From: Synergistaceae bacterium
Lineage (GTDB): Bacteria > Synergistota > Synergistia > Synergistales > Synergistaceae
Assembly: GCA_031289775.1 (NCBI GenBank)
Contig: JAITOY010000002.1
Location: 28,337-92,336, forward strand
Direction: 5' to 3'
DNA: 64,000 bases
The notes below the pieces were generated by a model. It saw nothing but the letters and a program-made list of their open reading frames with translations. It had not been told where the DNA came from and made no database searches. A program made the translations under genes and the position numbers. Of the stretch, positions 5,573 to 28,426 are shown one piece after another; position 1 is the first letter of the stretch, and each line of letters begins with the position of its first letter.

Positions 5573-6865
5573 ATGAAAATAGGTGTTTTGAGGGGTTCTT
5601 TCTTAATGAGCTATGATCGCTCGCACACTGGCGCTTGGCGTGAAAAGGAGCTTAGCCTGCGACAGGTAATGGAGAAATATCCGGAGGTATCTCCGTTCGT
5701 CATAATTAAAACCGACGCGCAGCGGCGCGGAGTCGAGTACGCCGACAGGGCGCTCGCCGCTGTCGATCCGGATATTCACCTCACCAAAGTCCGCAGCGAC
5801 TACAGCAACAAGGAGGATCTGACCCCAGTTTCCCTGATGATGAGGGACGGAACTTCCATCTGTACGAGCGTGGACGTGGGAGGAAATACCTCGTCCGGCC
5901 GCGATCCGTATCTTGTGGACGTCGTGGACGGTAAAGTTGTGCTCGTGGACGAAAACAGAGTCATCGAGGAGGTTTCTTACTGGGAAAAACCTGATTTCCA
6001 CGAAAAGGAGACTTCCAGGGGGACGCCGATGTGGCACGTCGTCTCCGTTCGTCCTCAGAGACTTTGCATCCATCCTCACCAGCACTGCGATTACTGGAAG
6101 ACCCCTGGTCATGGTTGTAAATTCTGCGCGATGTCGGCCGTCTACCATTCCGGCAACAAGCCGGAGCTGCTCGACGTGCGCGACATCGTGGAGAGCGTGG
6201 CTGAGGCGATAAAGGAGCCCGGTAGGAACGTCAACATATTTTTGACAGGAGGGACGCTCTGCGGCGGGGAAAATTTCCTCGACGACGAGGTGAATTACTA
6301 CGAGGAGATTCTGGGCGGTATCACGAAACTGTTTGGCGGCCGCCGCTTCCCGAGCCAACTGATCAGCACGGCGTTTTCCTTCGAACAGCTCCGGCGTCTG
6401 TACGACAACACGGGTTTGACTTCTTATACGGCCGATATCGAGGTGCTCAACAAGGATCTGTTCGCGTGGATCTGTCCCGGCAAAGCGGCCACGATCGGTT
6501 ACGACGAATGGAAGGAGCGCCTCTGCCGGGCTGTGGAAATCTTTGGAAAGGGCAACGTAAACACAGGCCTCGTCGTCGGGGTGGAGTTTGCTACGCCAAA
6601 CGGATTTGAGAACGAGGATGAGGCGCTGGAGTCGATCCTGGCAGAGGCCGATGAATTATCCTCGTGCGGGGTGGGCGTTGTAGGTTGTGTCTGGCACGTC
6701 TCCCCGGTTTCGATCTTTAAAAAACAAATTTCTCCCGGGTTGGAGTATTACGTCCGATTAGCCAAGGGCTTCGACAGGATTCGACGGAAATACGGCATTA
6801 ACGTGGATATGGATAATTACCGCCGCTGCGGTAACCATCCCGATACCGATCTCGGCAGGATTTGA
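5573..6865 (+). CDS. Radical-SAM-like protein with an atypical Cys motif (CX6CX10CX2C) and a glycine-rich GGT/GGE segment
   Basis: …CIHPHQHCDYWKTPGHGCKFCAMSAVYHSGNKPELLDVRDIVESV…NIFLTGGTLCGGENFL… resembles radical-SAM layout: a cluster-binding Cys triad, then ~35 aa, then a GGE-type SAM-binding motif, then TIM-barrel-like strands. The first loop is 10 residues instead of 3. The alternative start at 5606 (MSYDR…) has a GAGGGG RBS. The functional call is inference only. Confidence 0.4.
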   Translation: MKIGVLRGSFLMSYDRSHTGAWREKELSLRQVMEKYPEVSPFVIIKTDAQRRGVEYADRALAAVDPDIHLTKVRSDYSNKEDLTPVSLMMRDGTSICTSVDVGGNTSSGRDPYLVDVVDGKVVLVDENRVIEEVSYWEKPDFHEKETSRGTPMWHVVSVRPQRLCIHPHQHCDYWKTPGHGCKFCAMSAVYHSGNKPELLDVRDIVESVAEAIKEPGRNVNIFLTGGTLCGGENFLDDEVNYYEEILGGITKLFGGRRFPSQLISTAFSFEQLRRLYDNTGLTSYTADIEVLNKDLFAWICPGKAATIGYDEWKERLCRAVEIFGKGNVNTGLVVGVEFATPNGFENEDEALESILAEADELSSCGVGVVGCVWHVSPVSIFKKQISPGLEYYVRLAKGFDRIRRKYGINVDMDNYRRCGNHPDTDLGRI

Positions 6866-6880
6866 GGGGGCTGCAATTTA

Positions 6881-7369
6881 GTGGGAGTTTTGTTGAGCGT
6901 GTTGAACGAAGATTTTGGGCAGATCCTCGCGGATCCTGAGACGATAGCGGCTCTGGCCACCACGGGGAGCGACGGTTCCGTCCATGTCGCCTTCAAGGGA
7001 TCGTTTTGTCTTAGAGAAGACGGTAATCTGGAGTATGACGAAGTTATTGAGGCCTCGCAGACGAATAAAAACCTCGTATACTCGATATGGTTCGGGAAGA
7101 CCGTATCGATAAGCTTTCTGGCCAAAGACCACCGCAGTTTTCTCGTCATCGGGCGCCCGGTTCGCGCGCTCGTCTCGGGGCGGGAGTTCCGCGAACATTA
7201 CGTCGCCATACGCGGGAGGCTGGGGGACGTGGATCTTTCGACCGTCTGGATCATCGAACCAGTTTCTGTATGCGAGCAAAGCTTTGAGAAAAGAAGGACG
7301 GAGGAGGAAAACGCTCATCCGCTGTTTCGGCATCTTGACCGCCTGGCTGTCTCCGGAAGCGGACTTTGA
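6881..7369 (+). CDS. Pyridoxamine-5'-phosphate-oxidase-like (FMN-binding split-barrel) family protein
   Basis: GTG start with GAGGGGG upstream. The protein is 162 aa, with a general PNPOx-like/flavin-reductase-like pattern (…TGSDGSVHVAFKGSF…). This is a weak, size- and pattern-based call. Confidence 0.4.
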   Translation: MGVLLSVLNEDFGQILADPETIAALATTGSDGSVHVAFKGSFCLREDGNLEYDEVIEASQTNKNLVYSIWFGKTVSISFLAKDHRSFLVIGRPVRALVSGREFREHYVAIRGRLGDVDLSTVWIIEPVSVCEQSFEKRRTEEENAHPLFRHLDRLAVSGSGL

Positions 7370-7480
7370 TCGCGGCGGGGGGCGATATCATGACTATTAT
7401 GTAGAGATTGACTGAGAAAACATGAAGTTAATTGTAACGAAATCTATGAAATGAAATAAAAAAAGAGGAGAGAATTAATT

Positions 7481-8500
7481 ATGAGATATGAAGGGTTTAA
7501 ATTCAGATTTTCCCTTATTTCCTTTGTCGTCGCGTTGTTTTTTGCCGTTTACGGCGGGCCTTTTGCGAGCGTCACAGCGGCGGGAGAGACGAAAAAAGAC
7601 TACAAGGGATTGGTGATACATCTCGCGACCCAGCCCAGCCAGGTGCAGATTTCTCTTGCTGAGGAGCTCGGTTATTTCAAGGATGAATTCGGGGGTGACG
7701 GCATCACTTTCGACGTGCGCACCTTCCCGTCCGGTCCTCCGATTATCGAGGCGATCGCGGCCGGCAACATCGATATCGGCCAGGTCGGCAACCTGCCCGC
7801 CATTCAGGCGTTCAACAATAAAATCCCGATTAAAATAATAGGCGCTTATATGACCGACACCGGGAAAAGCCAGGGCCTGCTCTCCAGGAAGGGTTCCGGT
7901 ATCGAAAAGCTCGAGGATATCCGCGGCAGAAAGATCGGCGCCCAGATAGGTTCAGCGTCTCATTTCCTCCTGATGCAATATCTGCAAACGCTGAATTTAA
8001 CGGAGGACGACATACAGATCGTAAACCTGTCGTTCGGCGATATCAACGCGGCGCTGGAAGCCGGGAGCATTGACGGCGGTGTGAACCAGCTGCCGCAGAT
8101 GGCCTCTGTGCTTGAAAACGGGACGGCCACGTTGATTGCGGACGCGTCTGGCTACCCCCTTTCGCCGAGCACAGTCGTTGCGAGAACGGCGCTGCTTGAA
8201 AAATACCCTGAATTGATCCCCCGTATTTTAAAGACGTTCGATCGTGCCGTTCAGTACTGCATCACGAACGAGGACGACGCGATCCGCATCCTTCACGAGA
8301 GGAACGACGTGGCGGAAAGCGCCTACAAGGCTTCATTCACTAGCAACAGCTTTGCGCTGTTTCTCGACGCGAAACGCATCGAAGCGCTGAAGCTCAACGA
8401 GGTTTTTCTCAGGAAGGAAGGCACTATAACAGGCGTCGATATCGACAAGCTCGTTGATGCGTCGTTCCTCGAAGCGGCCGGTCTCAACACGCCTAAATAG
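7481..8500 (+). CDS. ABC transporter substrate-binding protein, NitT/TauT (SsuA/TauA/NMT1-THI5-like) family
   Basis: AGGAGAG RBS and a signal peptide (FSLISFVVALFFAVYGG). It has the SsuA/TauA-type periplasmic binding-fold pattern. It is first in a three-gene operon with the permease and ATPase that follow. Confidence 0.7.
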   Translation: MRYEGFKFRFSLISFVVALFFAVYGGPFASVTAAGETKKDYKGLVIHLATQPSQVQISLAEELGYFKDEFGGDGITFDVRTFPSGPPIIEAIAAGNIDIGQVGNLPAIQAFNNKIPIKIIGAYMTDTGKSQGLLSRKGSGIEKLEDIRGRKIGAQIGSASHFLLMQYLQTLNLTEDDIQIVNLSFGDINAALEAGSIDGGVNQLPQMASVLENGTATLIADASGYPLSPSTVVARTALLEKYPELIPRILKTFDRAVQYCITNEDDAIRILHERNDVAESAYKASFTSNSFALFLDAKRIEALKLNEVFLRKEGTITGVDIDKLVDASFLEAAGLNTPK

Positions 8501-8551
8501 CCGAAATAAAAAAGCCGAAGTGAGCGAAATACGGCAGGGGGAAATAGTTGA

Positions 8552-9337
8552 ATGAACGCGCGTTCGAAGAACAGTGTCAAAGCGATCGCCATTGGGTTTA
8601 TCATGCCAGTCGCGTTCCTCGTCGCGTGGGAGATTCTCGGGCGGAGGGGGATCCTGAACAGCTCTATTTTCCCCACTCCTTCGCGTATTTTCACGTCATT
8701 TATGGACATGGTGAGCCGCGGCAGGATGCAAAAGCATCTTCTGATAAGCCTCCTCCGCGTCGTAAAGGGCTTTTGCGTGGGCTCGGTTCTCGGGTTGGTA
8801 ATCGGGACGGTCATCGGTCTTTCAAACGCGGCGAATGCCCTGATGTCATCCATTATAGGCCTCCTGAGGCCGATTCCGATGGTCGCGTGGATACCAGTGC
8901 TCATACTCTGGCTCGGCATCGACGAGGCCTCGAAGGTGACGCTGATTGCGATTGGCACGTTTTGGCCCGTCCTCATAAACACGAGCCGAGGCATAAAAAA
9001 CAGCGACAGAAAACTTCTCGAAGTGGGTATTATTCTCGAGAAAACCCGCTTACAGATGCTCGCTAAAGTGGTGCTTCCCTCCGCGTTTCCCTTTATCTTT
9101 ACTGGGCTTCGCCTTGGGGTCGGCAGCGCCTGGACGTGCGTTGTAACAGCCGAGGCCATTGCCGCCGCGTCCGGCATAGGTTATCTCATCATGTACGCGA
9201 GGGAGCTTTCGCAACCGCCAGTCATGTTCTCGGCGGTTATGACAATCGCGGTTGTCGGCCTTATTCTAGACGCGATTTTGCTTCGAGTCGAAAAACGCGT
9301 CCTTCGTTGGAACGAGCCGGACGAAGAACGGGGCTAG
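8552..9337 (+). CDS. ABC transporter permease (SsuC/TauC-type)
   Basis: It has six hydrophobic spans and the EAA-like permease loop (…LIAIGTFWPVLINTSRG…). Confidence 0.75.
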   Translation: MNARSKNSVKAIAIGFIMPVAFLVAWEILGRRGILNSSIFPTPSRIFTSFMDMVSRGRMQKHLLISLLRVVKGFCVGSVLGLVIGTVIGLSNAANALMSSIIGLLRPIPMVAWIPVLILWLGIDEASKVTLIAIGTFWPVLINTSRGIKNSDRKLLEVGIILEKTRLQMLAKVVLPSAFPFIFTGLRLGVGSAWTCVVTAEAIAAASGIGYLIMYARELSQPPVMFSAVMTIAVVGLILDAILLRVEKRVLRWNEPDEERG

Positions 9338-9347
9338 ATTAAAGGCC

Positions 9348-10139
9348 ATGGCCGAACATAACGGCGAGGACAAAAGCGTAGATATCCGAGGCGTGTCGAA
9401 AATTTTTACGCTGAGCGCGGGAGACCTTCCTGTGCTCGACAAGGTCGATCTGCATATCTCGAGCGGCGAGTTCATCAGCGTTGTCGGGTCGAGCGGGTGC
9501 GGGAAAAGCACTTTTTTGCGCATTATCTCGGGGCTGGAGAGCGCGACTGCTGGCGACGTGTTTATCGGCGGAAGAAAGGTCGATCGCCCGAGCGTGAAGA
9601 CAGGAGTCATTTTTCAGGAATCCAGGCTGTTTCCGTGGCTCTCTGTGGAACAGAACATCGCGTTCGGCATTCACAAAAAAGTGGATAAAGAGGGCAGGAA
9701 AAAACTTATATGCCAACACGTCGGCCTCGTGGGGCTCGCTGGTTTTGAAAACGCCTACCCAAGGCAGCTTTCCGGTGGTATGCGGCAAAGGGTCAGCATC
9801 GCTCGCGCGCTTATCAATAAACCGGGGGTATTGCTTTTGGACGAACCCTTCGGAGCGCTGGACGCTTTGACGAGAATCCACATGCAGAACGAGGTTCTGC
9901 GCATATGGAGCGCGGAAAAATCCACGATGGTTTTGGTGACGCATGACGTCGACGAGGCAATATTCCTGAGCGACCGCATAGTAGTGATGTCCGACAGGCC
10001 GGGTTATATAAAAAATGTGCTCGATGTCGATATTTCGAGACCCAGGGATCGCAGCAGCGTTCCTTTTATGGAGATCCGCAAAAAAATTTATACGCATTTT
10101 TTTGCGGAGTCAGCGCTCTCGCTGGAGTATTATCTATAA
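9348..10139 (+). CDS. ABC transporter ATP-binding protein (SsuB/TauB-type)
   Basis: Walker A GSSGCGKST, signature LSGGMRQRVSIARAL, Walker B LLLDEPFGALD and an H-loop VTHD are all present. Confidence 0.8.
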   Translation: MAEHNGEDKSVDIRGVSKIFTLSAGDLPVLDKVDLHISSGEFISVVGSSGCGKSTFLRIISGLESATAGDVFIGGRKVDRPSVKTGVIFQESRLFPWLSVEQNIAFGIHKKVDKEGRKKLICQHVGLVGLAGFENAYPRQLSGGMRQRVSIARALINKPGVLLLDEPFGALDALTRIHMQNEVLRIWSAEKSTMVLVTHDVDEAIFLSDRIVVMSDRPGYIKNVLDVDISRPRDRSSVPFMEIRKKIYTHFFAESALSLEYYL

Positions 10140-10353
10140 AGCGAATTAATTTTCGCGCGTCGGCAACTCCTCCCTTTTCAACCCTCTCTCTGATGTTACA
10201 ATACGCTCGACTGTTCATAAGGAAACGCTGATTTATTGTCAGAGGCCTTCACGATAACGAATAAAAAACAGTCTCTGTGTTCCCGGACGAAGAAATTTCG
10301 TTTGAGGAATTTGATCAGCGCTCCCAAAAATCTCTGAAGGGTGGAAATCAATT

Positions 10354-11487
10354 ATGTCGACCCAGACGCCTCCAAACAGCGCGTCATGTCAGCCGAACTC
10401 CGCCGGATTGCCCAGTCAGTCCAGCCAGCCAAACGCATCGAGGCTCATGAATACGTCGGACGTTCGGAAGCTTGTCGCATCTGACGCGTTCAAGGGCATC
10501 TATGTTGTGAACAACTTATTAAAGAAGACTGATAAAAACGGCAGGCCGTACTGGGAGATGACTGTCTCGGATCAGCAGGGCATCCTGAACGCGAAGATAT
10601 GGTCGGACGCCGGGTGGTGGGACAGGTCGACGCCGGAGCTCGAGGGCAAACCCGACATGCTCTCGGAGGCTGGCATCAAAGCGCTCAAGGGGAAGACGGT
10701 TGGCATCACCGGTAAAGTCGCCGACTTCAGAGGGCAGCTTCAGTATAATTTCAACGCCATAACGCTCCTCAACCAGGACAAATATTCGCCGACGCAGTAT
10801 ATCGCTCATTCGGAGATACCCCTCCCCGTCCTTATTCAGCGGCTGGAGTCGGCTATAGACGTGTGCCGGCCGGAGGTGCGAGATTTCCTGAGATATGTCT
10901 TCAGCGGCGAGAGGGGCAGAGCCTTCCGGGACGCCCCGGCCGCCGTATCGAACCATCACGCCTACGCGCATGGCCTGCTCGAACACACTCTGGCCGTCGC
11001 TGACGCGGCCAGGGCGATGGCCCTCACATACGTCGACGTTCACCCGTCGCTCGACGTCGACGTCGTGGCCGCGGGCGCGCTTTTGCACGACCTGGGCAAG
11101 ATCGAGTCTTACTCCATGTCCCCGATTCCAGAGATAACGCTGCCGGGGGCTGTGCTCGACCACATCGCGATAGGTTACGCTATGTTCGCTCGCCTCACGG
11201 AGGAGTCGAACCTCGGCCGCGAGCTTCGTCTCCAGATCGGGCACATAATATTGAGCCATCACGGACAGAAGGAGTTCGGCTCGCCAGTCCTCCCCGCGAC
11301 GCTCGAGGCGCTTATCGTCTCGGCCGCCGACGAGCTCGACTTCAGGCTGTTCTGCTGGAAGGACGCGGTGAAGGATCTTTCGCCGGGACAGAGCATCTCC
11401 GCGTTCCACTTCGCGGCCCAGAGACGCTTCTGGCGAGCGGCGCCGGAGCTTGAAGAAAAACAGGATGCGAACAGAAAAGAGCCCTGA
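10354..11487 (+). CDS. HD-domain protein with an N-terminal OB-fold, YhaM-like 3'-5' exoribonuclease family
   Basis: The OB-fold region (GIYVVNNLLKKTDKNGRPYWEMTVSDQQG) is followed by HD motifs (H..AHGLLEHTL…LLHDLGKIE…ILSHHG). The N-terminal ~35 aa are low-complexity S/Q/P-rich. An alternative start lies near 10447. Confidence 0.55.
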   Translation: MSTQTPPNSASCQPNSAGLPSQSSQPNASRLMNTSDVRKLVASDAFKGIYVVNNLLKKTDKNGRPYWEMTVSDQQGILNAKIWSDAGWWDRSTPELEGKPDMLSEAGIKALKGKTVGITGKVADFRGQLQYNFNAITLLNQDKYSPTQYIAHSEIPLPVLIQRLESAIDVCRPEVRDFLRYVFSGERGRAFRDAPAAVSNHHAYAHGLLEHTLAVADAARAMALTYVDVHPSLDVDVVAAGALLHDLGKIESYSMSPIPEITLPGAVLDHIAIGYAMFARLTEESNLGRELRLQIGHIILSHHGQKEFGSPVLPATLEALIVSAADELDFRLFCWKDAVKDLSPGQSISAFHFAAQRRFWRAAPELEEKQDANRKEP

Positions 11488-20157: not shown

Positions 20158-21048
20158 ATGCAGATGAGGATTGACAAAAAAATAGCAGACGCGCGAACGC
20201 TCTCCTTCGAGGTATTTCCGCCGAAGCCGGAGGCCGACGACGACCTCTCGGGGATAAAAAGGACAATCGCGGAGCTGTCGTCGTCGTCGCCGGATTTTGT
20301 CTCGGTTACGTTTGGCGCTGGCGGAAACAACAGGCCGCGCGCGCTCGATATCGCAAAGATAGTGACGTCGCATGGAATGGTTCCTCTGTCGCACATCACG
20401 GCGGCCGGTTACACGAGGGAGGACGCCTCGCGTCTGCTTGGCTTGCTCAGGGATCTGGGTGTCGAGAACATCCTTGCTCTACGCGGGGACGTCCCGAAGG
20501 ATGTCTCAGAGGAGACCTGCTGGAGGGATTACAGGCGCGCGAGCGAACTGTCGGCGCACGTATCCGAGTTTGGAGCGTTTTGCATAGGCGGGGCCGCCTA
20601 TCCAGAGGGTCATCAGCATAGCGTCTCCACTGAGATGGATATCAGGTTCATGAAGGAGAAGGTAGAATCTGGCGTATCTTTTTTCATCACACAGTTGTTT
20701 TTCGACAACGACGCGTTCTTTCGTTTCGCTGAAAGGGTGGCCGGCGTCCTGGACACGCCGGTTATAGCCGGGATAATGCCGGTTTTTAGGGCGTCGCAGA
20801 TAACGCGCGTCATCGAGATATCGGGGTGCCGGGCGCCTGAAAAATTATCCAGCCTTCTCGATAAGTACATGGATGACGACGACTCGATGAGAGAGGCCGG
20901 GATCGACTATGCGGTAGAGCAGATAAACGGACTGTGGAGCGCCGGGACGAGGGGCGTGCATATTTATACCATGAACAGGTCGCGGGAGATTCTCGAGATA
21001 TTGAAACGCTGTGATTTGCCCGGCAGGGGCGAATCTGTCCAACGATAA
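20158..21048 (+). CDS. metF: 5,10-methylenetetrahydrofolate reductase
   Basis: …LSFEVFPPK…VSVTFGAGG…ILALRGD…FFITQLFFD are MetF hallmarks. The start is taken at ATG 20158 (MQMRIDKK). The ORF-track start of 20068 overlaps the preceding gene. Confidence 0.8.
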   Translation: MQMRIDKKIADARTLSFEVFPPKPEADDDLSGIKRTIAELSSSSPDFVSVTFGAGGNNRPRALDIAKIVTSHGMVPLSHITAAGYTREDASRLLGLLRDLGVENILALRGDVPKDVSEETCWRDYRRASELSAHVSEFGAFCIGGAAYPEGHQHSVSTEMDIRFMKEKVESGVSFFITQLFFDNDAFFRFAERVAGVLDTPVIAGIMPVFRASQITRVIEISGCRAPEKLSSLLDKYMDDDDSMREAGIDYAVEQINGLWSAGTRGVHIYTMNRSREILEILKRCDLPGRGESVQR

Positions 21049-21208
21049 ATCATGCTCTTTTTGTCCAGAAAATTGCCGCTGTTTAAAAAGTCCGGAGGGG
21101 TTATTATATTGCTTGCCGCGGACGGGGAGATCGAGGGCTGCGGCGTGACGTGACCGAGGGGCGCCGGACGCGCGCTCCCGCCTTTTTAGCTCGCGGAGGG
21201 GCTTTGAG

Positions 21209-21874
21209 ATGACGATCAGCATCGTTATAGCGGACGACCACCCGCTCACGAGATCTGGACTCGCAGAGTGGATAAAAAAGAACGCGAATTTCACGCTAGC
21301 CGCCGAGGTGGAGGACGGGATCTCGGCGTGGGCCGTTATAGAGGCGCAGCGTCCGGATATCGCTCTGCTCGACATCCAGATGCCAGGCGAGAATGGTATA
21401 GCTGTAGCCCAGAGGATAAAGGATCTCGGATTCGCGACAAGGCCGATAATGCTCACATCCTTCAACGCCCAGCCCTACGTGATGGCGTCGCTGCGCGCAG
21501 GGGCGATGGGTTTCGTACTGAAGACGACGGCCGTTCGAGAGCTGGAGGTCGCAATAAAACAGGTCATGAGCGGCGGGTTTTACCTCGATTCGCAGGTAGC
21601 GGGAATACTCGGCGACAGGGGAGTGGTTCCGGAGTCTCTCTCCGTTCGCGAGAGAGAGGTGCTCCTCGTAACGTCGAAGGGCTTCTCCATCAAGGAGATA
21701 GCGGCCAAACTATGCATAACGGAGAGGACGGTTCAGGCGCATCTGACGTCCGTTTACTCGAAGTTCGGGTGCAGGGGCAAGGGCGAAGCGCTGCTCGTGG
21801 CGCTGAAGCACGGCATTATCACTATAGATGAGCTTCTTGAAGGCACGTCTCTCGACGAGGCGCCGGCCCAGTGA
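21209..21874 (+). CDS. Two-component response regulator, NarL/FixJ (LuxR-HTH) family
   Basis: The REC domain has the acidic pocket and phospho-Asp (IVIADDHPL…IALLDIQMPGENG). The C-terminal LuxR HTH is LSVREREVLLVTSKGFSIKEIAAKLCITERTVQAHL. Confidence 0.8.
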   Translation: MTISIVIADDHPLTRSGLAEWIKKNANFTLAAEVEDGISAWAVIEAQRPDIALLDIQMPGENGIAVAQRIKDLGFATRPIMLTSFNAQPYVMASLRAGAMGFVLKTTAVRELEVAIKQVMSGGFYLDSQVAGILGDRGVVPESLSVREREVLLVTSKGFSIKEIAAKLCITERTVQAHLTSVYSKFGCRGKGEALLVALKHGIITIDELLEGTSLDEAPAQ

Positions 21875-23346
21875 TTCGCAGAAAGCTTTTGACTATATTG
21901 TTCATCTGCATCCTTCTGCCGGTCGTAATAACCCTCGTCGAGTCGACGAGGGCGATAATATCGCAAAAAAACGCAATGACCAGCATATCTGGCGCTTACG
22001 TCAGGAATCTCTCCAACTTCGCAGCCGACAGGTGGAACGAGGGCAACGCCGAGCGGATAACCTCCTTTTTGTCGCTCGTTGCCGACAACGGCTACGATAC
22101 ACTTGTGTCCGTCAGGAACACTCCGGAGGCGCCGCCTGGGCCGCTGAGCCTGAACGCCAGGACGATGCGCGAGAAGCTCATCCCTGGTCTTGTCGCCTAT
22201 GTGAGCGGGAGCGGGCGGCTCATATCCTGCTCCCAGAACGCGGCCATACTTCTCAATATTTTCCCTCGCGCCCCGCTTGTTGCGTCAGGGAACAGGTTTT
22301 CGCGGGGAGGCGGCATCATAAGCAAGTTCAGGGTGGGCAAGGAGGATATAACCTACGTCGCGCATGTCACGCCGACAAAGGATCCGAGTGTCTACGCGGT
22401 CGCTGCAGTTACGATGCTGAGCTGGATGGGGCGCAACGACTTCAACCTCATCAGACTCGCTACGGCGGGAACGCTCTCGATGATAATGTGCCTCCTCGGA
22501 CTGCTGCTTCTGCGACGGTCAGTCATTATTCCTCTTCAGGCTCTTTCGGCGCAGGTGGAGACACTAGAATGGGGCAGACAGTCGCCGCCTGACGAGGGCA
22601 AAGCCAGGACCGCGATGCAGGTGGAGGAGATATCCTCGCTTAAAAAGGCAATATTCGACCTTGCCTTGAGGATGATAGAGAAGGGGGAGCTGGAGAAACG
22701 ATATATGCGCGACATCATGAAGGCCCAAGAGCATGAGCGCGGAAGAATCGCGCAGGATATTCACGACGGCCCCATACAAGTTGCCTCCGCTCTGATACAG
22801 AGGATACAGATGGCTAATTTAGGGGCAGGCGACATGGAGGACGAAACGCGTCGGCAACTCGTCACGGCAGAGAGCGTGGCACAGGATCTCGTGAAGGATC
22901 TCCGCGACGTCTGCGACTCGCTCGTGCCTCCCTGGGTGTCGCTGGGCATCGTCTCGTGCATGGAGGAGTCGGCGAGCCGTTTTGAGCGGCTGTACTCCAT
23001 TGAGATAAACCTGAACATCGACCAGTCTATAGACATTCCTCTGGAGCAGACGCTGGCGTTCTTCAGGGTTTTTCAGGAGGCTGTCTCGAACGCCGTCCGT
23101 CACGGCGGTGCGACAGAGGTGGAAATGGAACTGCTCCGGCGTGAAGACGGGGATGGCGTGATATTTCAGGTGAGCGACAACGGCAGAGGTTTTGACCTTT
23201 TTGACCTTGTCGGGAGGATGGAGGCGCTTCGTCTCGAGGGGAAAAGGGGTCTGAACGGAATGAGGCAGCGTGCGGAGCTGCTCGGGGGTAAGTTTGGGCT
23301 CGTCTCAAGCACGGGGAAAGGAACTTCGATTACCATAACAATCTGA
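21871..23346 (+). CDS. Sensor histidine kinase, NarX/LiaS-type (HisKA_3 plus HATPase_c)
   Basis: It has a 4-nt overlap with the response regulator gene. Two TM segments flank a periplasmic region. The H-box is HERGRIAQDIHDG. The ATPase N, G1 and G2 boxes are …AVRHGGAT…VSDNGRGF…GLNGMRQRAELLGG. Confidence 0.75.
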   Translation: MIRRKLLTILFICILLPVVITLVESTRAIISQKNAMTSISGAYVRNLSNFAADRWNEGNAERITSFLSLVADNGYDTLVSVRNTPEAPPGPLSLNARTMREKLIPGLVAYVSGSGRLISCSQNAAILLNIFPRAPLVASGNRFSRGGGIISKFRVGKEDITYVAHVTPTKDPSVYAVAAVTMLSWMGRNDFNLIRLATAGTLSMIMCLLGLLLLRRSVIIPLQALSAQVETLEWGRQSPPDEGKARTAMQVEEISSLKKAIFDLALRMIEKGELEKRYMRDIMKAQEHERGRIAQDIHDGPIQVASALIQRIQMANLGAGDMEDETRRQLVTAESVAQDLVKDLRDVCDSLVPPWVSLGIVSCMEESASRFERLYSIEINLNIDQSIDIPLEQTLAFFRVFQEAVSNAVRHGGATEVEMELLRREDGDGVIFQVSDNGRGFDLFDLVGRMEALRLEGKRGLNGMRQRAELLGGKFGLVSSTGKGTSITITI

Positions 23347-23405
23347 CAGGCGCTCTCGCATTCATGGGGCGCACCCGGATATCCCGGAGTGAAAGGACGA
23401 CGCGC

Positions 23406-24413
23406 ATGATATTCATCAGCCATGCCGAGAGAGACGCGCCTCTGGCGGCAGCTCTCAAAAATTTTTTTGCGGAATGTATCGATGTTGCGCCGAAAAAAAT
23501 ATTTTGCACATGCATTCATGATCCGGAGCAGACGGACAACGAGTTGCCTTATGGGCGGTTGAAGGAGGAAATCTCCGAGAGCAGCATCGTCTTCGCCATA
23601 GTGACGCAGGATGGAGTCTCGTCCGGCAGCGTCCTTTTCGAGCTAGGCGCGGCGTGGATACTCGCAAATGGCATTTTTTTAATCTGTCTCGACGGTTCTG
23701 ACTTTCGTGATCTTCCGGGGCCGCTCAGCGCTTTCCCTTGCGTAGACGTCGAGGACAAGGACGCCGCGATCCGCATTATGGGCATGTGTCGTGACGCGGC
23801 CGCCGCCCTTGGAGTTGGGATAAAAAGAGGACCTAAAGTCGTCTCTTCGCTGACGGATGTTCTTGACTCGATCGCAAACCGCAAGAAGGATGACGACGCC
23901 GAATACGAATACGAAGACGAAGACGAAGACGAAGACGAAGACGAAGACGAAGAGAGGGACGGCTCTGACGAAGAAACTGGCGAGCGGTATGAAGTTGCCG
24001 AGTGGAGGGGCAGCGACTATTGCGAGATAAGTTTCATGGTCGACGGAATAGGAAGGAAAGATGTCGCGACGGTGCGGATTTTCTGGGACGACGTCTTCAT
24101 GACGATTGCGCAGAACACAAGGAAGTCTCAGGACGAGCCGTTTGTGGCAAGCGTGCTGTTGGAGCTGTGCAGAGAGAGAGACCCGGATTTTTCGAAAGCC
24201 CTCAGCTATAGGCTTATGCTGAATCCCGAGATATCTCCGGAGAGCTTCGCCCTTATCATGTCGCGGCTCTCGTCCATGGGTTTCATAGGCCCGTCCCAGC
24301 CGCCCCACACCGTATTCCAAAAGCAAGCTCGCGGGACGTTCTGGAAATTGACCCATGTCGGCGAGGAACACCTGCGTAGCGTGATTGCCGGACGGAGAAA
24401 GCTTCAAATGTGA
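23406..24413 (+). CDS. TIR-like domain protein: N-terminal TIR-like domain, acidic repeat linker, and a C-terminal domain of unknown function
   Basis: AAGGA sits 9 nt upstream of ATG 23406. The N-terminus MIFISHAERDAPLAAALKNFF…SSIVFAIVTQDGVSSGSVLFELGAAW matches the bacterial TIR pattern (vFISYs..D……ivlS..y..S.WC..El). The linker is DDDAEYEYEDEDEDEDEDEDEE, encoded by (GAAGAC)6. I do not recognise the ~150-aa C-terminal domain. The ORF-track start at 23364 is less likely. Confidence 0.5.
   Translation: MIFISHAERDAPLAAALKNFFAECIDVAPKKIFCTCIHDPEQTDNELPYGRLKEEISESSIVFAIVTQDGVSSGSVLFELGAAWILANGIFLICLDGSDFRDLPGPLSAFPCVDVEDKDAAIRIMGMCRDAAAALGVGIKRGPKVVSSLTDVLDSIANRKKDDDAEYEYEDEDEDEDEDEDEERDGSDEETGERYEVAEWRGSDYCEISFMVDGIGRKDVATVRIFWDDVFMTIAQNTRKSQDEPFVASVLLELCRERDPDFSKALSYRLMLNPEISPESFALIMSRLSSMGFIGPSQPPHTVFQKQARGTFWKLTHVGEEHLRSVIAGRRKLQM
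23901..23954 (+). repeat. In-frame hexanucleotide tandem repeat (GAATAC)2(GAAGAC)6(GAAGAG), encoding EYEYEDEDEDEDEDEDEE
   Basis: Read directly from the sequence: gaatacgaatacgaagacgaagacgaagacgaagacgaagacgaagacgaagag. Confidence 0.9.
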
Positions 24414-24527
24414 GTGCCGGACGAACATCCTGCTTACGTCCTAAACGCGAAAAATCGGCGAATGCAATCGGCGGCATAACTATTGACTTATATCCTGTTT
24501 GGCGTAGAATAATCGCTTGTGATGTTT

Positions 24528-24603
24528 GAGCCGTTAGCTCAGTCGGTAGAGCACCGGATTTTTAATCCGGGTGTCCCGGGTTCAACCCCCGGACGGCTCA
24601 CCA
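24528..24603 (+). tRNA. tRNA-Lys (anticodon UUU)
   Basis: The 76-nt cloverleaf has a 7-bp acceptor stem (GAGCCGT/ACGGCTC), a D-arm AGCTCAGTCGGTAGAGC, an anticodon loop aTTTTTAAt (anticodon TTT), a T-arm GGGTTCAACCCCC and an encoded CCA. Confidence 0.85.
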
Positions 24604-24627
24604 AACATCCTTCTAAATCCCTTCAGC

Positions 24628-24703
24628 GGTCCCATCGTCCAGTGGTCTAGGACACCGCCCTTTCAAGGCGGCGACACGGGTTCAAACCCCGTTGGGACCG
24701 CCA
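24628..24703 (+). tRNA. tRNA-Glu (anticodon UUC)
   Basis: The 76-nt sequence GGTCCCATCGTCCAGTGGTCTAGGACACCGCCCTTTCAAGGCGGCGACACGGGTTCAAACCCCGTTGGGACCGCCA closely follows the canonical tRNA-Glu architecture. It has a 7-bp acceptor stem and the anticodon loop C-TTC-AA. Confidence 0.85.
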
Positions 24704-25293
24704 GGTAAAGCCAAGGTCTCACCGCGATTCAGCGTGAGGCCTTTTTCGTGGTGCGTTGCCCACGGGGGTTCCAGCAGGCAAAAATTGTAAGTACAACGAT
24801 CACCCTTTAAGACAATATCAAGAGCAGAGCCGTTTACCTTCGACTCTGAATTTTTAGAAGAAACCGCCGATGACATAAGACCTTTTACATTTTCCATGAT
24901 AAAAAAACGGGGCCGCATGTAATCTATCATTCGTATAAAATCCATAAACAAACTGCCGCAGGGGTCGGCGATACCCTTCCTCTTGCCAGCCGTCGAAAAC
25001 GGCTGGCACGGTGGACCACCGCACACTAAAAACGGCTCTCCTTGTGACAAATTTGCCGCTTCTAATAACTGCTGAGGCTGTAATTTCCTAATGTCACCCT
25101 CTAAAACCTGATGGTTATTAGCTCTCATTGTCGTAACACAAGAATTATCTATATCCTGTCCCACTTTCACTAATAAACCCGCCTGAGATAAGCCAATATC
25201 AAGCCCCATAGCGCCGGAAAAAAGAGAAATAACGTCACGATTCGACGAAATATTATCACGTTGTAAAAACAAGATTTGATACCCCCTTTCCAA
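24682..25293 (-). pseudogene. Truncated DNA (cytosine-5)-methyltransferase with motifs I, IV and VI only
   Basis: The reverse-strand ORF has ISLFSGAMGLDIGL (motif I, FxGxGG-like), GGPPCQPFSTAGKRKG (motif IV PCQ) and IMENVKGL (motif VI ENV). Motif VIII (QxRxR), the target-recognition domain and motifs IX-X are absent. Beyond about 24795 the ORF reads through terminator/intergenic sequence into the tRNA-Glu 3' end. Confidence 0.6.
24715..24746 (+). terminator. Rho-independent terminator downstream of the tRNA pair
   Basis: ggtctcac-(11-nt loop)-gtgaggcc forms an 8-bp stem with one G·U pair, followed by TTTTT. Confidence 0.5.
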
Positions 25294-25426
25294 GGGTCTG
25301 CATAAAAAATTATAGCATTAATCAATAAAGTTTGCCGGAAATGTGCGCGCTATTTTATGGCTTGACGAATTTCCCAAAGTCGGTAAATATTGATGGACGA
25401 GGTTCATGAGAACAGGAGGGATTCGT

Positions 25427-25510
25427 ATGTCGACGCAGACCGTGACGGCAGAGCAGCAGGAGTTACTCGAGATTATAGAGGAGGTGGCATACTATGTCCG
25501 ACATCATTAA
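25427..25510 (+). CDS. Small ORF (27 aa, MSTQTVTAEQQELLEIIEEVAYYVRHH) upstream of and overlapping the next small ORF
   Basis: GGAGGG sits 7 nt upstream of the ATG. Its stop overlaps the next ORF, consistent with translational coupling. It is below the 60-aa cutoff of the ORF track. Confidence 0.2.
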   Translation: MSTQTVTAEQQELLEIIEEVAYYVRHH

Positions 25511-25661
25511 GGATGTTGAACGCACCTGTGCTTATTGCGGCAGGCCCTTGAATAGCCTCGAAATCGGCCATGATTATCTGAACGGCCTTTGCGAGAAGTG
25601 TCATGGCGTTGGAGTATCCGTAAATGCTGCGGCAGATTGGGTGCCTTACGATGGGAATTAA
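25494..25661 (+). CDS. Small zinc-ribbon-like protein (55 aa, CxxC-x17-CxxC)
   Basis: GAGGAGG sits 9 nt upstream of the ATG. The product is MSDIIKDVERTCAYCGRPLNSLEIGHDYLNGLCEKCHGVGVSVNAAADWVPYDGN, with two CxxC knuckles. It lies in the low-GC islet. Confidence 0.3.
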   Translation: MSDIIKDVERTCAYCGRPLNSLEIGHDYLNGLCEKCHGVGVSVNAAADWVPYDGN

Positions 25662-25894
25662 CGATTCGAGCAATCGAGAGTAAATCGGCGTTCCGCGTTT
25701 CTTCACGTCACACTACGTCACCTTCTGGAATTACGAATTATATCGCGGTGGCGCCAGAGAAAAAAGCGCCCCCGCGCTCTTCTCCTAATCGCTTGCGGGT
25801 ATCTGACTTTAGTAACAAAAACGGTCTTTTATTTTTAGGGATGTCTGTTACAATATTCTTACATTGGCGTCGATAGTGCGAGGTGGGGTTTTTC

Positions 25895-28426
25895 ATGAAA
25901 AAAAATCTCAGCAATCATTTGGTCATACTTTCATTTTTCGTCTCTGCCATAACCGTGCTTATCATATCAGTATACGCCAGTCTCATGATGAACTCCACAT
26001 CGGACTTCCTGAAGTCGAATATCGAATCGCGCCTGCTCTCCATCAGCCGCTACGCGGCTCAGTTGATTTCAGCGGACGAGCTGGAACAGCTCGTCACGCC
26101 GGAGGACATGCAAAAGCCGATTTACGCCGAGATCAAGGAACGGCTGATTGCCTTTGGCGAGGAAGCGGACATACTCTTCGTCTATTATTTGCGAGACGCC
26201 GGCAACGACGAGATGCAGTTCATCGTCGACAACGACACGACCGAGGACGCGGTTGACCTCGAAACTCCGCCGATACCTTATGAGGAGAGCCCGAAATTAG
26301 CGCAGAGCGGCACGGCGTCCACCGCTGGGCTGGGGAATTACTCCGTCGGTTATACAGGGCTCCTCTCGGCGTTCGCGCCGGTGTTCGATTCGGAGGGGAA
26401 CGTCATTGCGATAGTGGGGGTCGACATCACGGACGAGCATGTCCTGCTGATGAAGAGGCGCATAAACACGCTCTCTCTTTTGCTGATCGTCTCCATGACC
26501 GTCGCCATATCGAGCGGTTACATCGGTTTTTCGCTCTACAAAAAGAAGGCGGCGCAGTCCGAGGTCGCCAACATATCGAAGAGCCTCTTCCTCGCCAACA
26601 TAAGCCACGAGATGCGCACGCCCCTCAACGCCATCATCGGCCTCTCAGAGCTGACCCTCGACTCGGACGACGTGCGCGGCGAGGCCAGAGAGAACATGGA
26701 GAAGGTCTACAACTCAGGCATGACTCTGCTTAGTCTCATCAACGACATTCTCGACATCTCAAAAATCGAGGCGGGAAGGTTCGATCTGATTCCGGCCGAG
26801 TACGACACGCCGAGCCTCATCAACGACGCTGTCACGCTCAATATAATCCGCATTGGCTCAAAACCCATTACGTTCAGCCTGTCGATCGACCCGGCTCTGC
26901 CGGGCAGCCTCTTAGGGGATGAGGTGAGGATCAAGCAGATTCTGAACAACCTCCTCTCCAACGCTTTTAAATACACGAAGGAGGGCAAAATCGATCTTGG
27001 CATCTCGTTCGAGCGAGAAGGGGAAAGCGTCTGGATCACCTTTAGTGTCAGCGACACCGGCATTGGCATACACCGGGAGGACATGGAGAAGCTGTTCGTC
27101 GACTACAGCCAGCTCGACTCGAAAAGCAACCGTAAAATCGAGGGCACTGGGCTCGGCCTCGCCATCACGAAAAGGCTCGTGGATATGATGGACGGCGCCA
27201 TCACGGTCGAGAGCGAGTACGGCAGGGGCAGCGTCTTTACAGCGCGCCTCAGACAGGGCGCCGCCGGTGATACCCCTATAGGCGAGGATGTCGTGGAGAA
27301 TCTCAAGCGCTTTCACTACTCCGACAACAAGCGCGACCGAAACGCGCGGCTCGTGCGCGTCCAGATACCGTACGCGAATGTGCTCGTGGTCGACGACATC
27401 GCGACAAATCTTGACGTCGCGAGGGGGATGCTGAAGCCATATGGTATGCAGATCGACTGCGCTACGAGCGGGGCCGCCGCCATCGAGCTCGTGAGGGCCG
27501 GGACGAAGTACAGCGCGATATTCATGGATCATATGATGCCCGGTATGGATGGGATCGAGGCCCTGCGTCTGATTCGGGAGGATATAGGCACGGAGTACGC
27601 CAGGACTGTCCCCATAATCGCGCTCACGGCCAACGCGGTCGTCGGCAACAAGGAGATGTTCCTCAAGAGTGGCTTCCAGGACTTCCTTACGAAGCCTATC
27701 GACATCATGAGAATGGATGCCGTCATAAACCGCTGGGTGCGCGACATGGAGATGGAGATGGCCCCTGCGGAAGCCCCGGCAGGGGAGGACTCCGCCAACG
27801 GAGGACTGGCGGGGAAGCCGGACAGGAGGAAGCTCCGAGAGAGGAGGGTTAACGGAGTCGATTTAGAGATTGGACTGAGGCGTTTCGGCGGCGACGAGGA
27901 CGTTTATTATGACGTGTTGAAGTCATACGTGCGCAACACGCCTTCCCTGATCGACGAGATTCGGGACTGCCGGGAGGATGGCTTGGCCGCTTACGCCGTG
28001 GTAGTTCACGGCATAAAGGGCAGCAGCCGAGGCATCGGGGCTGAGATGATGGGCCTGAGGGCCGAGTCGCTCGAGTTCGCGGCGAAGGACGGCGATTTCG
28101 CGTTCGTCGAGGCGAACAACGGTATTTTCATTGCTGAGACTGAAAAGTTGATCGGCGAGCTCTCCGCCATACTGCAAAGCGTTGACGCCGAGACGGAAAG
28201 ACCGATGAGGCCTGCGCCGGATGAGGCGGCGCTGGACTCCCTGATGGAGGCCTGCGCCGGATTCGACATCGACGGCGTGGATAGGGCAATGGAGGAGTTG
28301 GAGAGCTTCGATTACGAATCCGGCTTCGAGCTTGTAGTTTGGCTGAGAAATCAGGTGAGCCTCATGGGCTTCAAGGGGATCAAGGAACGTCTCGAGAGCA
28401 GAAAAAAATCTCGGGCGCAATCCTGA
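25895..28426 (+). CDS. Hybrid sensor histidine kinase (TM-sensor-TM, HisKA, HATPase_c, REC, Hpt)
   Basis: GAGGTGGGG RBS. The H-box is [17 protein letters not shown]. The N/G boxes are …NAFKYT…SDTGIGI…GTGLGLAI. The receiver is [10 protein letters not shown]…[13 protein letters not shown]…ALTANA. The C-terminal Hpt-like histidine is in [15 protein letters not shown]. Confidence 0.8.

Follow-up and report, generated by a model that had tools for sequence, protein, structure and literature searches.

The DNA analyzed here, referred to as the window, is a stretch of 64,000 nucleotides from a Synergistaceae genome (assembly GCA_031289775.1, contig JAITOY010000002.1), and our subject is a single gene on its forward strand, at positions 23406..24413. 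The gene encodes a protein of 335 amino acids (335 codons plus the stop), in which an N-terminal TIR domain is joined by a strongly acidic linker to a C-terminal module predicted to contain a PadR-like winged helix. The support for the gene consists of an open reading frame, homologs, a family alignment, a structural model, and the ratio of nonsynonymous to synonymous substitution rates (dN/dS). The reading frame extends over 23364..24413 in a six-frame list, and the start codon chosen in the original prediction, at 23406 (MIFISHAERD), is borne out, because the homologs also begin with MIFISH and an AGGA motif lies about 9 nt before the ATG. That the gene is real follows from the existence of these homologs, together with a dN/dS of 0.22 in the closest pair. 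An antisense reading frame at 23679..24428 was rejected as an artifact of the repeat that encodes the linker.

The gene is the last of a conserved three-gene block. The first gene (21209..21874, forward strand) encodes a NarL/LuxR-type response regulator with a receiver domain (REC) and a GerE helix-turn-helix (HTH) domain (Pfam Response_reg, E 6e-24; GerE, E 7e-15). The second (21871..23346, forward strand) overlaps it by 4 nt and encodes a HisKA_3 histidine kinase, with matches to Pfam HisKA_3 and HATPase_c. A consensus scan placed a promoter-like site ahead of the response regulator gene (21082-21110), while in the 59-nt spacer between the kinase and TIR genes (23347..23405, forward strand), neither a promoter-like nor a terminator-like site was found by such a scan. 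The TIR gene is thus likely to be co-transcribed with the two-component genes. Downstream, on the same strand, lie genes for tRNA-Lys(UUU) at 24528-24603 and tRNA-Glu(UUC) at 24628-24703, detected with ARAGORN and Rfam; an Rfam scan of 20900-26100 returned these two tRNAs and nothing else. A promoter-like site (TTGACT-16-TAGAAT, a consensus match at 10 of 12 positions) at 24483..24510 on the forward strand, 18 nt 5' of tRNA-Lys, suggests that the two tRNAs have a transcript of their own, apart from that of the three-gene unit, and may mark where the protein-coding unit ends. The tRNAs form the boundary between the conserved block and an AT-rich islet of about 1.2 kb (24704-25882), with a GC content of 0.457 versus 0.572 for the window. 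The setting described in the original prediction, with a two-component system upstream, a tRNA pair downstream and a decayed foreign islet beyond, was therefore recovered in full by Pfam, ARAGORN, Rfam and base composition.

The family was delimited by an exhaustive search of 1.84 billion representative proteins with a C-terminal domain profile. This gave 16 hits, 13 of which share both the architecture and the length (314-367 amino acids) of the window protein, amounting to about 13 clusters. The fusion of a TIR domain to one further domain, as originally described, is kept in all of them. A word-indexed homolog search recovered only two partial homologs. Members with a named source belong to the Synergistaceae or Synergistales. 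One further hit, a 1434-residue STAND/repeat protein (P0014), matched the C-terminal domain through a repeated helical motif and was rejected as a homolog.

The N-terminal domain (residues 1-167, 23406..23906, forward strand) had been described as a TIR domain from its sequence pattern, and several independent comparisons agree. The PADLOC spbK model matched with an E-value of 3.4e-10, its profile positions 151-250 of 308 aligning with residues 2-102. A family profile of the N-terminal domain, searched against the PDB, found SpbK (9PHB) with an E-value of 9e-8 over positions 2-97. The next matches in that search were nucleoside 2-deoxyribosyltransferases, with E-values of 7e-3 or worse and over the glutamate segment only (positions 49-93). 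Pfam TIR_2 (PF13676) matched residues 2-120 with an E-value of 7e-5 and 23.7 bits, under the cut-off of 28 bits. Across the family, 9 of 14 members match TIR_2 with E-values below 0.01 (best 4.7e-9), and relatives that are 25-39% identical clear the cut-off with 34-89 bits. One family member (P0018) carries the NCBI name TIR domain-containing protein.

For the structure, an AlphaFold2 model built on a 16-sequence family alignment was used (mean predicted local distance difference test score [pLDDT] 82), in place of a single-sequence model that was unusable (pLDDT 49). In the model, the N-terminal domain forms a flavodoxin-like sheet of five strands together with helices A-E, nearer to TIR domains than to other flavodoxin-like folds. 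Foldseek matched it to the SPARTA TIR-APAZ protein (9e-5) and to SpbK (template modeling score 0.71). A reading of this domain as a response-regulator receiver was rejected, as no Response_reg match was obtained, receiver structures ranked under TIRs, and the candidate phospho-acceptor after strand 3 (D69) is P, Q, G or A in homologs.

The residues expected of a TIR NADase are centered on the helix-C motif F78-E79-L80-G81-A82-A83-W84 (23637..23657, forward strand, with the E79 codon at 23640-23642), which aligns with N191-E192-M193-G194-A195-T196-W197 of SpbK. In SpbK, the helix-C substitutions N191R, G194R and W197A abolish both filaments and NADase activity, E192A is listed among the mutants made, and ADPR and N1-cADPR are produced only when the protein is self-associated (PMC12847820). 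In our family alignment (A3), Glu79 is kept in 12 of 13 members, Gly81 in all 13, and Trp84 in 12 of 13. This conservation is informative, since the members were found through the C-terminal domain alone, without use of the N-terminal domain. Glu79 is also a glutamate in the Synergistaceae loci L084-L087. The proposal that a glutamate occupies the catalytic position therefore holds in the family at large.

After strand D, residues 97-107 (nt 23694-23726) form a second motif, G-x-DFRDLP-x-PL, that is nearly invariant in the family (D102 in at least 90% of members, P104 in all) and often recurs as LPGPL in the TIR subfamily at large. It could be an element of the active site or of the head-to-tail interface.

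The linker (residues ~160-200, 23883..24005, forward strand) is as acidic as had been noted, with 26 aspartates or glutamates among 41 residues, and is predicted to be disordered, pLDDT falling below 50 for residues 170-200. Tandem Repeats Finder showed that its core is encoded by 10.3 copies of the hexanucleotide GACGAA (23892-23953, 91% matches), giving an (ED)n product. The linker varies in length and sequence across the family, and the hexanucleotide repeat is absent from every homolog, so the expansion is recent. The linker is a tether rather than a functional domain, lengthened in frame by a repeat expansion specific to this allele.

The C-terminal domain had been left unassigned in the original prediction. 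In agreement with this, no match was found in Pfam, NCBIfam or PADLOC; its fold, on the other hand, could be assigned. The first half (24006..24134, forward strand) is a long β-hairpin (residues 205-226) followed by a helix with a WDD motif, in which W227 and A235 are invariant columns in alignments A3 and A7 (pLDDT 82-95). This half matched no known family. The second half (residues 244-335, 24135..24410, forward strand) is predicted to fold as a PadR-like winged helix. In the model, two helices and a strand precede helix 278-290, after which come a two-stranded wing (294-297 and 312-315) and the C-terminal helix (317-334). Per 10-residue block, pLDDT in the C-terminal domain is 82-95, falling outside this range only in the wing loop (59) and at the C-terminal tip (78). 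The predicted fold was reached along three independent lines. First, Foldseek against the PDB returned the PadR protein 5dym (probability 1.0, TMt 0.64, from the predicted structure). Second, the best match in the viral structure library BFVD was likewise a PadR regulator (E 7e-3). Third, the sequence profile of the domain gave weak though consistent PDB matches to eS10 and to the PadR structures 3l7w, 1xma and 9qbc (E 0.016-0.6 overall, 0.07-0.6 for the PadR sequences), and hhalign aligned it, across recognition helix and wing, to the PadR protein SMU.1704 with 80% probability.

The predicted fold of residues ~244-335 resembles the short PadR-s2 regulators CdPadR_0991 (5DYM) and SMU.1704 (3L7W) in particular, and the family pattern G-[FY]-I ... 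[FY]-W-x-[LI]-T-x-x-G-x-x-x-L aligns with the recognition helix, wing and C-terminal helix of PadR proteins. The domain differs from them, however, in its additional N-terminal hairpin and helix with the invariant WDD motif, in its fusion to an enzyme domain, and in scoring under significance for Pfam PadR (PF03551), which matched only 1 of 14 members (E 0.18); by that profile, the family does not belong to PadR. The family C-terminal domains are mildly basic, with isoelectric points of 7.0-9.7, and 9.5 for the winged-helix part of the window protein.

The response regulator, histidine kinase and TIR genes are collinear in eight loci (the window, L001, L076, L077/L085, L084, L086 and L087), with gaps of 25-94 nt. 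The spacer between the kinase and TIR genes measures 25 nt in L084-L087, 61 nt in L001 and 94 nt in L076. What follows the TIR gene differs between loci: tRNA-Lys and tRNA-Glu in the window and L077/L085, tRNA-Leu in L076, tRNA-Pro, smpB and tmRNA in L087, PfkB in L084, and AcnX in L002. A kinase-anchored search found 16 orthologous loci, all in Synergistaceae metagenome-assembled genomes. The TIR gene occurs in 8 of 18 informative orthologous loci; it is present where the kinase is 70-81% identical to that of the window (70-73% in the kinase-anchored set), and absent from 10 informative, more distant Synergistaceae loci with kinases of 54-62% identity. As such, it is syntenic in near relatives but is a clade-specific accessory gene rather than a universal core gene, which answers only in part the concern that it might be a core gene of all relatives.

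The 3' end of the two-component operon is a variable slot. Among the TIR-negative loci (L088-L099), the position 14-36 nt after the orthologous kinase is taken in five loci by a gene for a 161-residue GAF-domain protein (for example at 2874-3359 in L096, 2944-3429 in L091, 7511-7999 in L094 and 2719-3204 in L099). In three of these (L091, L096 and L099), an oppositely oriented chemoreceptor-like gene follows. The other TIR-negative loci have tRNA-Ser or unrelated genes after the kinase.

Within the clade, the TIR protein is 38-52% identical to that of the window, compared with 85-91% for the response regulator, 72-81% for the kinase and 65-73% for the nearby MTHFR. In the closest pair (L086-L087, dS 0.33-0.49), dN/dS is 0.22 for the TIR gene, 0.12 for the kinase gene and 0.075 for the response regulator gene. 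The TIR gene thus evolves two to four times faster than its neighbors, under purifying selection on both domains. Its synonymous divergence matches that of the neighboring genes, with synonymous sites saturated in most pairs. This, together with the collinearity of the three genes, argues for vertical inheritance in this clade: the gene appears to have been gained once, or lost in other clades, and has been passed on with the operon since. The suggestion that it belongs to the tRNA islet is contradicted by its position upstream of the tRNAs, with the islet downstream, by the synteny in eight loci, and by its composition. It is slightly AT-richer than its neighbors, as had been remarked (GC content at third codon positions 0.64 versus 0.67-0.77), but it is no outlier, its GC content of 0.540 lying at the 17th percentile of windows of the same size (mean 0.573 ± 0.037).

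More distant members of the family lie in other settings. In P0011 and P0015, a gene for an XRE-family HTH protein is located directly upstream, its stop codon overlapping or abutting the start of the TIR gene. Homology between the two XRE proteins extends from end to end (37% identity), whereas the surrounding genes have no relation to each other: an S8 peptidase and GGT at one locus, pilMNO at the other. P0012 comes after an HTH_3 and Peptidase_M78 (ImmR/ImmA-like) pair, and P0006 and P0010 stand alone among housekeeping genes. These XRE and HTH_3 arrangements lie at L100 (7633-9002), L081 (584-2021) and L080 (604-2582). Judging from this gene order, the family outside the two-component clade seems to behave as a small mobile unit that carries a regulator or antitoxin of its own, and the XRE-TIR cassettes resemble toxin-antitoxin or mobile-element regulatory modules.

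Taking these observations together, a role as an NAD-depleting or defense effector, as originally suggested, appears the most plausible. In its specific form, we propose a self-contained effector of the SpbK type, a proposal to which we would assign about an even chance of being right. The TIR domain would most likely hydrolyze the N-glycosidic bond of NAD+ through Glu79. Activity would require head-to-tail assembly into two-stranded oligomers, as it does in SpbK and other TIR NADases, with Gly81 and Trp84 of helix C making the contact that pairs the strands. Sensing or assembly would fall to the C-terminal hairpin and winged helix: binding of a trigger, which may be a nucleic acid, a foreign protein or a small ligand, would gather the TIR domains and switch on NAD+ depletion, with growth arrest or abortive infection as the outcome. 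The flexible linker would merely tether the two domains. In the Synergistaceae lineage, the protein would be expressed from the last gene of a NarL-type two-component operon, and in distant relatives from behind their own XRE-family HTH gene. No ThsA-like or other signal-receiving partner was found in the neighboring genes of the examined loci, consistent with a depleter that works on its own. Described most conservatively, this is an uncharacterized TIR domain-containing protein.

Several points weigh against this proposal. The TIR_2 score of the window protein is under the Pfam cut-off, and one member (P0007) has an arginine at the position of Glu79. The aromatic residue at -4 from the glutamate (the tryptophan of WxxxE, a tyrosine in SpbK) is Ser75 here and is variable in the family. 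Pfam Nuc_deoxyrib_tr (PF05014) matches 8 of 14 members with E-values below 0.01 (best 1e-8), so the substrate could be a nucleotide rather than NAD+. The assignment of the winged helix draws on predicted structure and weak sequence scores, and the model, with a predicted template modeling score of 0.50, leaves the relative placement of the two domains undefined. A phage collection held no homolog of the protein, and the C-terminal domain was found in neither phages nor plasmids. The genomic context also differs from what had been expected of a site where antiphage genes accumulate. No other defense genes flank the gene in any locus; the neighbors across the loci with the two-component genes are housekeeping genes (MTHFR, MetH, AcnX, PfkB and SmpB), the sole foreign remnant lies beyond the tRNAs, and neither a defense-rich neighborhood nor a patchy, recent acquisition was seen. 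Retention at one locus through deep divergence is also unusual for defense genes.

The same context bears on a different explanation, in which the protein is an accessory or output part of the adjacent two-component system. Here, the winged helix would bind DNA, and the TIR-like domain would bind, sense or process a nucleotide such as NAD+ or ADP-ribose derivatives, in normal physiology rather than immunity. The three genes stay together in all eight loci while the downstream genes differ, the short gaps without a terminator imply a single transcript, and the synonymous divergence of the TIR gene equals that of its neighbors. In sister clades, the same slot holds the small GAF protein, a typical ligand-binding accessory. 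Moreover, the layout mimics that of a response regulator, with the winged helix placed after a flavodoxin-like domain, the winged helix is basic, and the distant members with an informative upstream flank all lie behind a transcription factor gene. We consider this explanation unlikely, though it ranks first among the alternatives. A related possibility, which we rate as rather improbable, is that the TIR domain was domesticated as a chromosomal signaling component: a TIR-winged-helix transcription factor or second-messenger enzyme, with NAD+-derived chemistry that is switched by the two-component signal or feeds back on DNA binding.

The Nuc_deoxyrib_tr matches suggest a further alternative, that of a nucleoside 2-deoxyribosyltransferase or a DNPH1/MilB-like nucleotide N-glycosidase acting on (deoxy)nucleotides or modified nucleotides instead of NAD+. 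The winged helix could then direct the enzyme to DNA or nucleotide pools, in salvage, detoxification or the restriction of modified phage nucleotides. The window protein itself has no match to PF05014, and its N-terminal motif is of the TIR type (IFISHxxxD). We give this alternative little credence. Least probable, in our view, is an orphaned and domesticated toxin of a toxin-antitoxin-like addiction module, for which XRE would be the antitoxin or repressor in distant members, lost from the Synergistaceae copy, with the latter persisting through tight transcriptional control or attenuated activity: the overlapping or abutting XRE-TIR pairs with unrelated flanks, their parallel with Xre-RES modules, and the absence of the WxxxE aromatic from the window clade (Ser75), which could mean attenuation, speak for it, but no XRE or other small partner gene lies beside the window gene or in the eight loci with the two-component genes, and purifying selection has been kept on both domains. 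As toxin-antitoxin and abortive-defense roles are not mutually exclusive, this last explanation overlaps with the SpbK-type effector that we favor.

Bacterial TIR effectors are defined by their fusion partners, because the partner domain decides what triggers the destruction of NAD+. The closest known system to the proposed effector is SpbK (YddK) of the Bacillus subtilis element ICEBs1 (PDB 9PHB, PADLOC PDLC03825), a single-protein TIR abortive-infection system. The order of domains is reversed, however, the TIR domain being N-terminal here and C-terminal in SpbK. The remaining domains are unrelated: residues 1-94 of SpbK bind the phage portal protein YonE, whereas the window protein has a hairpin and a PadR-like winged helix. 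Accordingly, positions 1-150 of the spbK hidden Markov model are unmatched by the window protein, which is not a full-length SpbK. In addition, SpbK has a tyrosine at the -4 position where the window protein has a serine, and is carried on an integrative and conjugative element, whereas the window gene is vertically inherited in a chromosomal two-component operon.

Other TIR fusions differ in their sensors. In the TIR-APAZ protein of SPARTA, TIR-STING, TIR-SAVED and Cat1, these are APAZ with an Argonaute partner, STING, and SAVED or CARF, and they answer to guide-target duplexes or to cyclic nucleotides from partner genes; the window protein has a winged helix instead, with no gene for making a signal in its vicinity. 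Thoeris does not apply either, as no gene for ThsA (SIR2/SLOG or Macro) is adjacent in any examined locus, and the window protein has no match to the TIR-like ThsB (DUF1863), a type whose members are mostly TIR-only. In Xre-RES modules, an Xre antitoxin neutralizes an NAD+-degrading toxin. The distant members of our family are similar in that an XRE HTH gene directly precedes, and overlaps or abuts, the gene for a putative NAD+-degrading effector, but the effector fold is TIR rather than RES, and the window gene has no XRE partner.

TIR enzyme-sensor fusions are known as a kind, SpbK has been characterized, and one member of the present family was already labeled as TIR by NCBI. New is the partner, a hairpin and PadR-like winged helix placed C-terminally to an SpbK-like TIR domain, which is undescribed in the libraries and papers searched. 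Also new are the reversed order with respect to SpbK, the rarity of the family (about 13 clusters in 1.84 billion proteins), and its long vertical retention at the end of a two-component operon. For an immune gene, such retention in one Synergistaceae clade would be unusual; distant members, for their part, move as two-gene cassettes coupled to an XRE gene. Should the winged helix sense nucleic acid, we would have a minimal NADase that nucleic acid triggers within a single chain. If the two-component system governs its expression, it would exemplify signal-controlled TIR activity. Finally, if it is a domesticated signaling component, bacterial TIR chemistry would be tied to ordinary gene regulation, and not to immunity.

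Beyond the tRNAs, the islet contains a truncated C5 cytosine DNA methylase gene on the reverse strand (24682..25293; Pfam DNA_methylase, E 5e-34, profile positions 3-117 of 324), which we regard as context outside the system. The fragment corresponds to the N-terminal third of the protein (~142 residues), and its reading frame enters the 3' end of tRNA-Glu. This resembles what is left, after decay, of a restriction-modification system or island that had inserted at the tRNA. A search of 24400-26100 for att-like copies of the 3' end of tRNA-Glu revealed none beyond the likeness of the two tRNAs.

A scan of metagenomes yielded 73 further loci (L003-L075) that share the N-terminal domain only, at 25-39% identity. 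These were retrieved with the FELGAAW pattern, and its conservation among them carries no evidential weight, because the pattern was the query. The C-terminal profile matched none of the 73. Two of them, L047 and L007, resembled a winged helix on visual inspection, but no relation emerged with hhalign, and a wider architecture of TIR plus this winged helix was rejected. The fusions seen among these loci include FGE-sulfatase domains, DUF4062 and double TIRs. In L016, L020, L021 and L047, specifically, the same TIR subfamily (IFISHSxxD ... LFELGAAW ... LPGPL) is fused to a coiled coil and an FGE-sulfatase domain, to DUF4062, or to a second TIR domain. For DUF4062 itself, a recent proposal is that it constitutes an NADase domain (bioRxiv 10.64898/2026.09.04.749371).

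Relatives of the N-terminal domain were also found on Enterococcus conjugative plasmids, adjoining genes for an ATPase, an S8 peptidase and a second TIR protein. On the Enterococcus faecium conjugative plasmid NZ_CP059824.1 (positions 5683-10945 of locus L103), a relative with 36% identity is part of a gene cluster that is bounded by IS256 and IS66 and encodes a TIR protein, an ATP-binding protein, an S8 peptidase and a second TIR protein; the cluster may be considered a candidate for defense.

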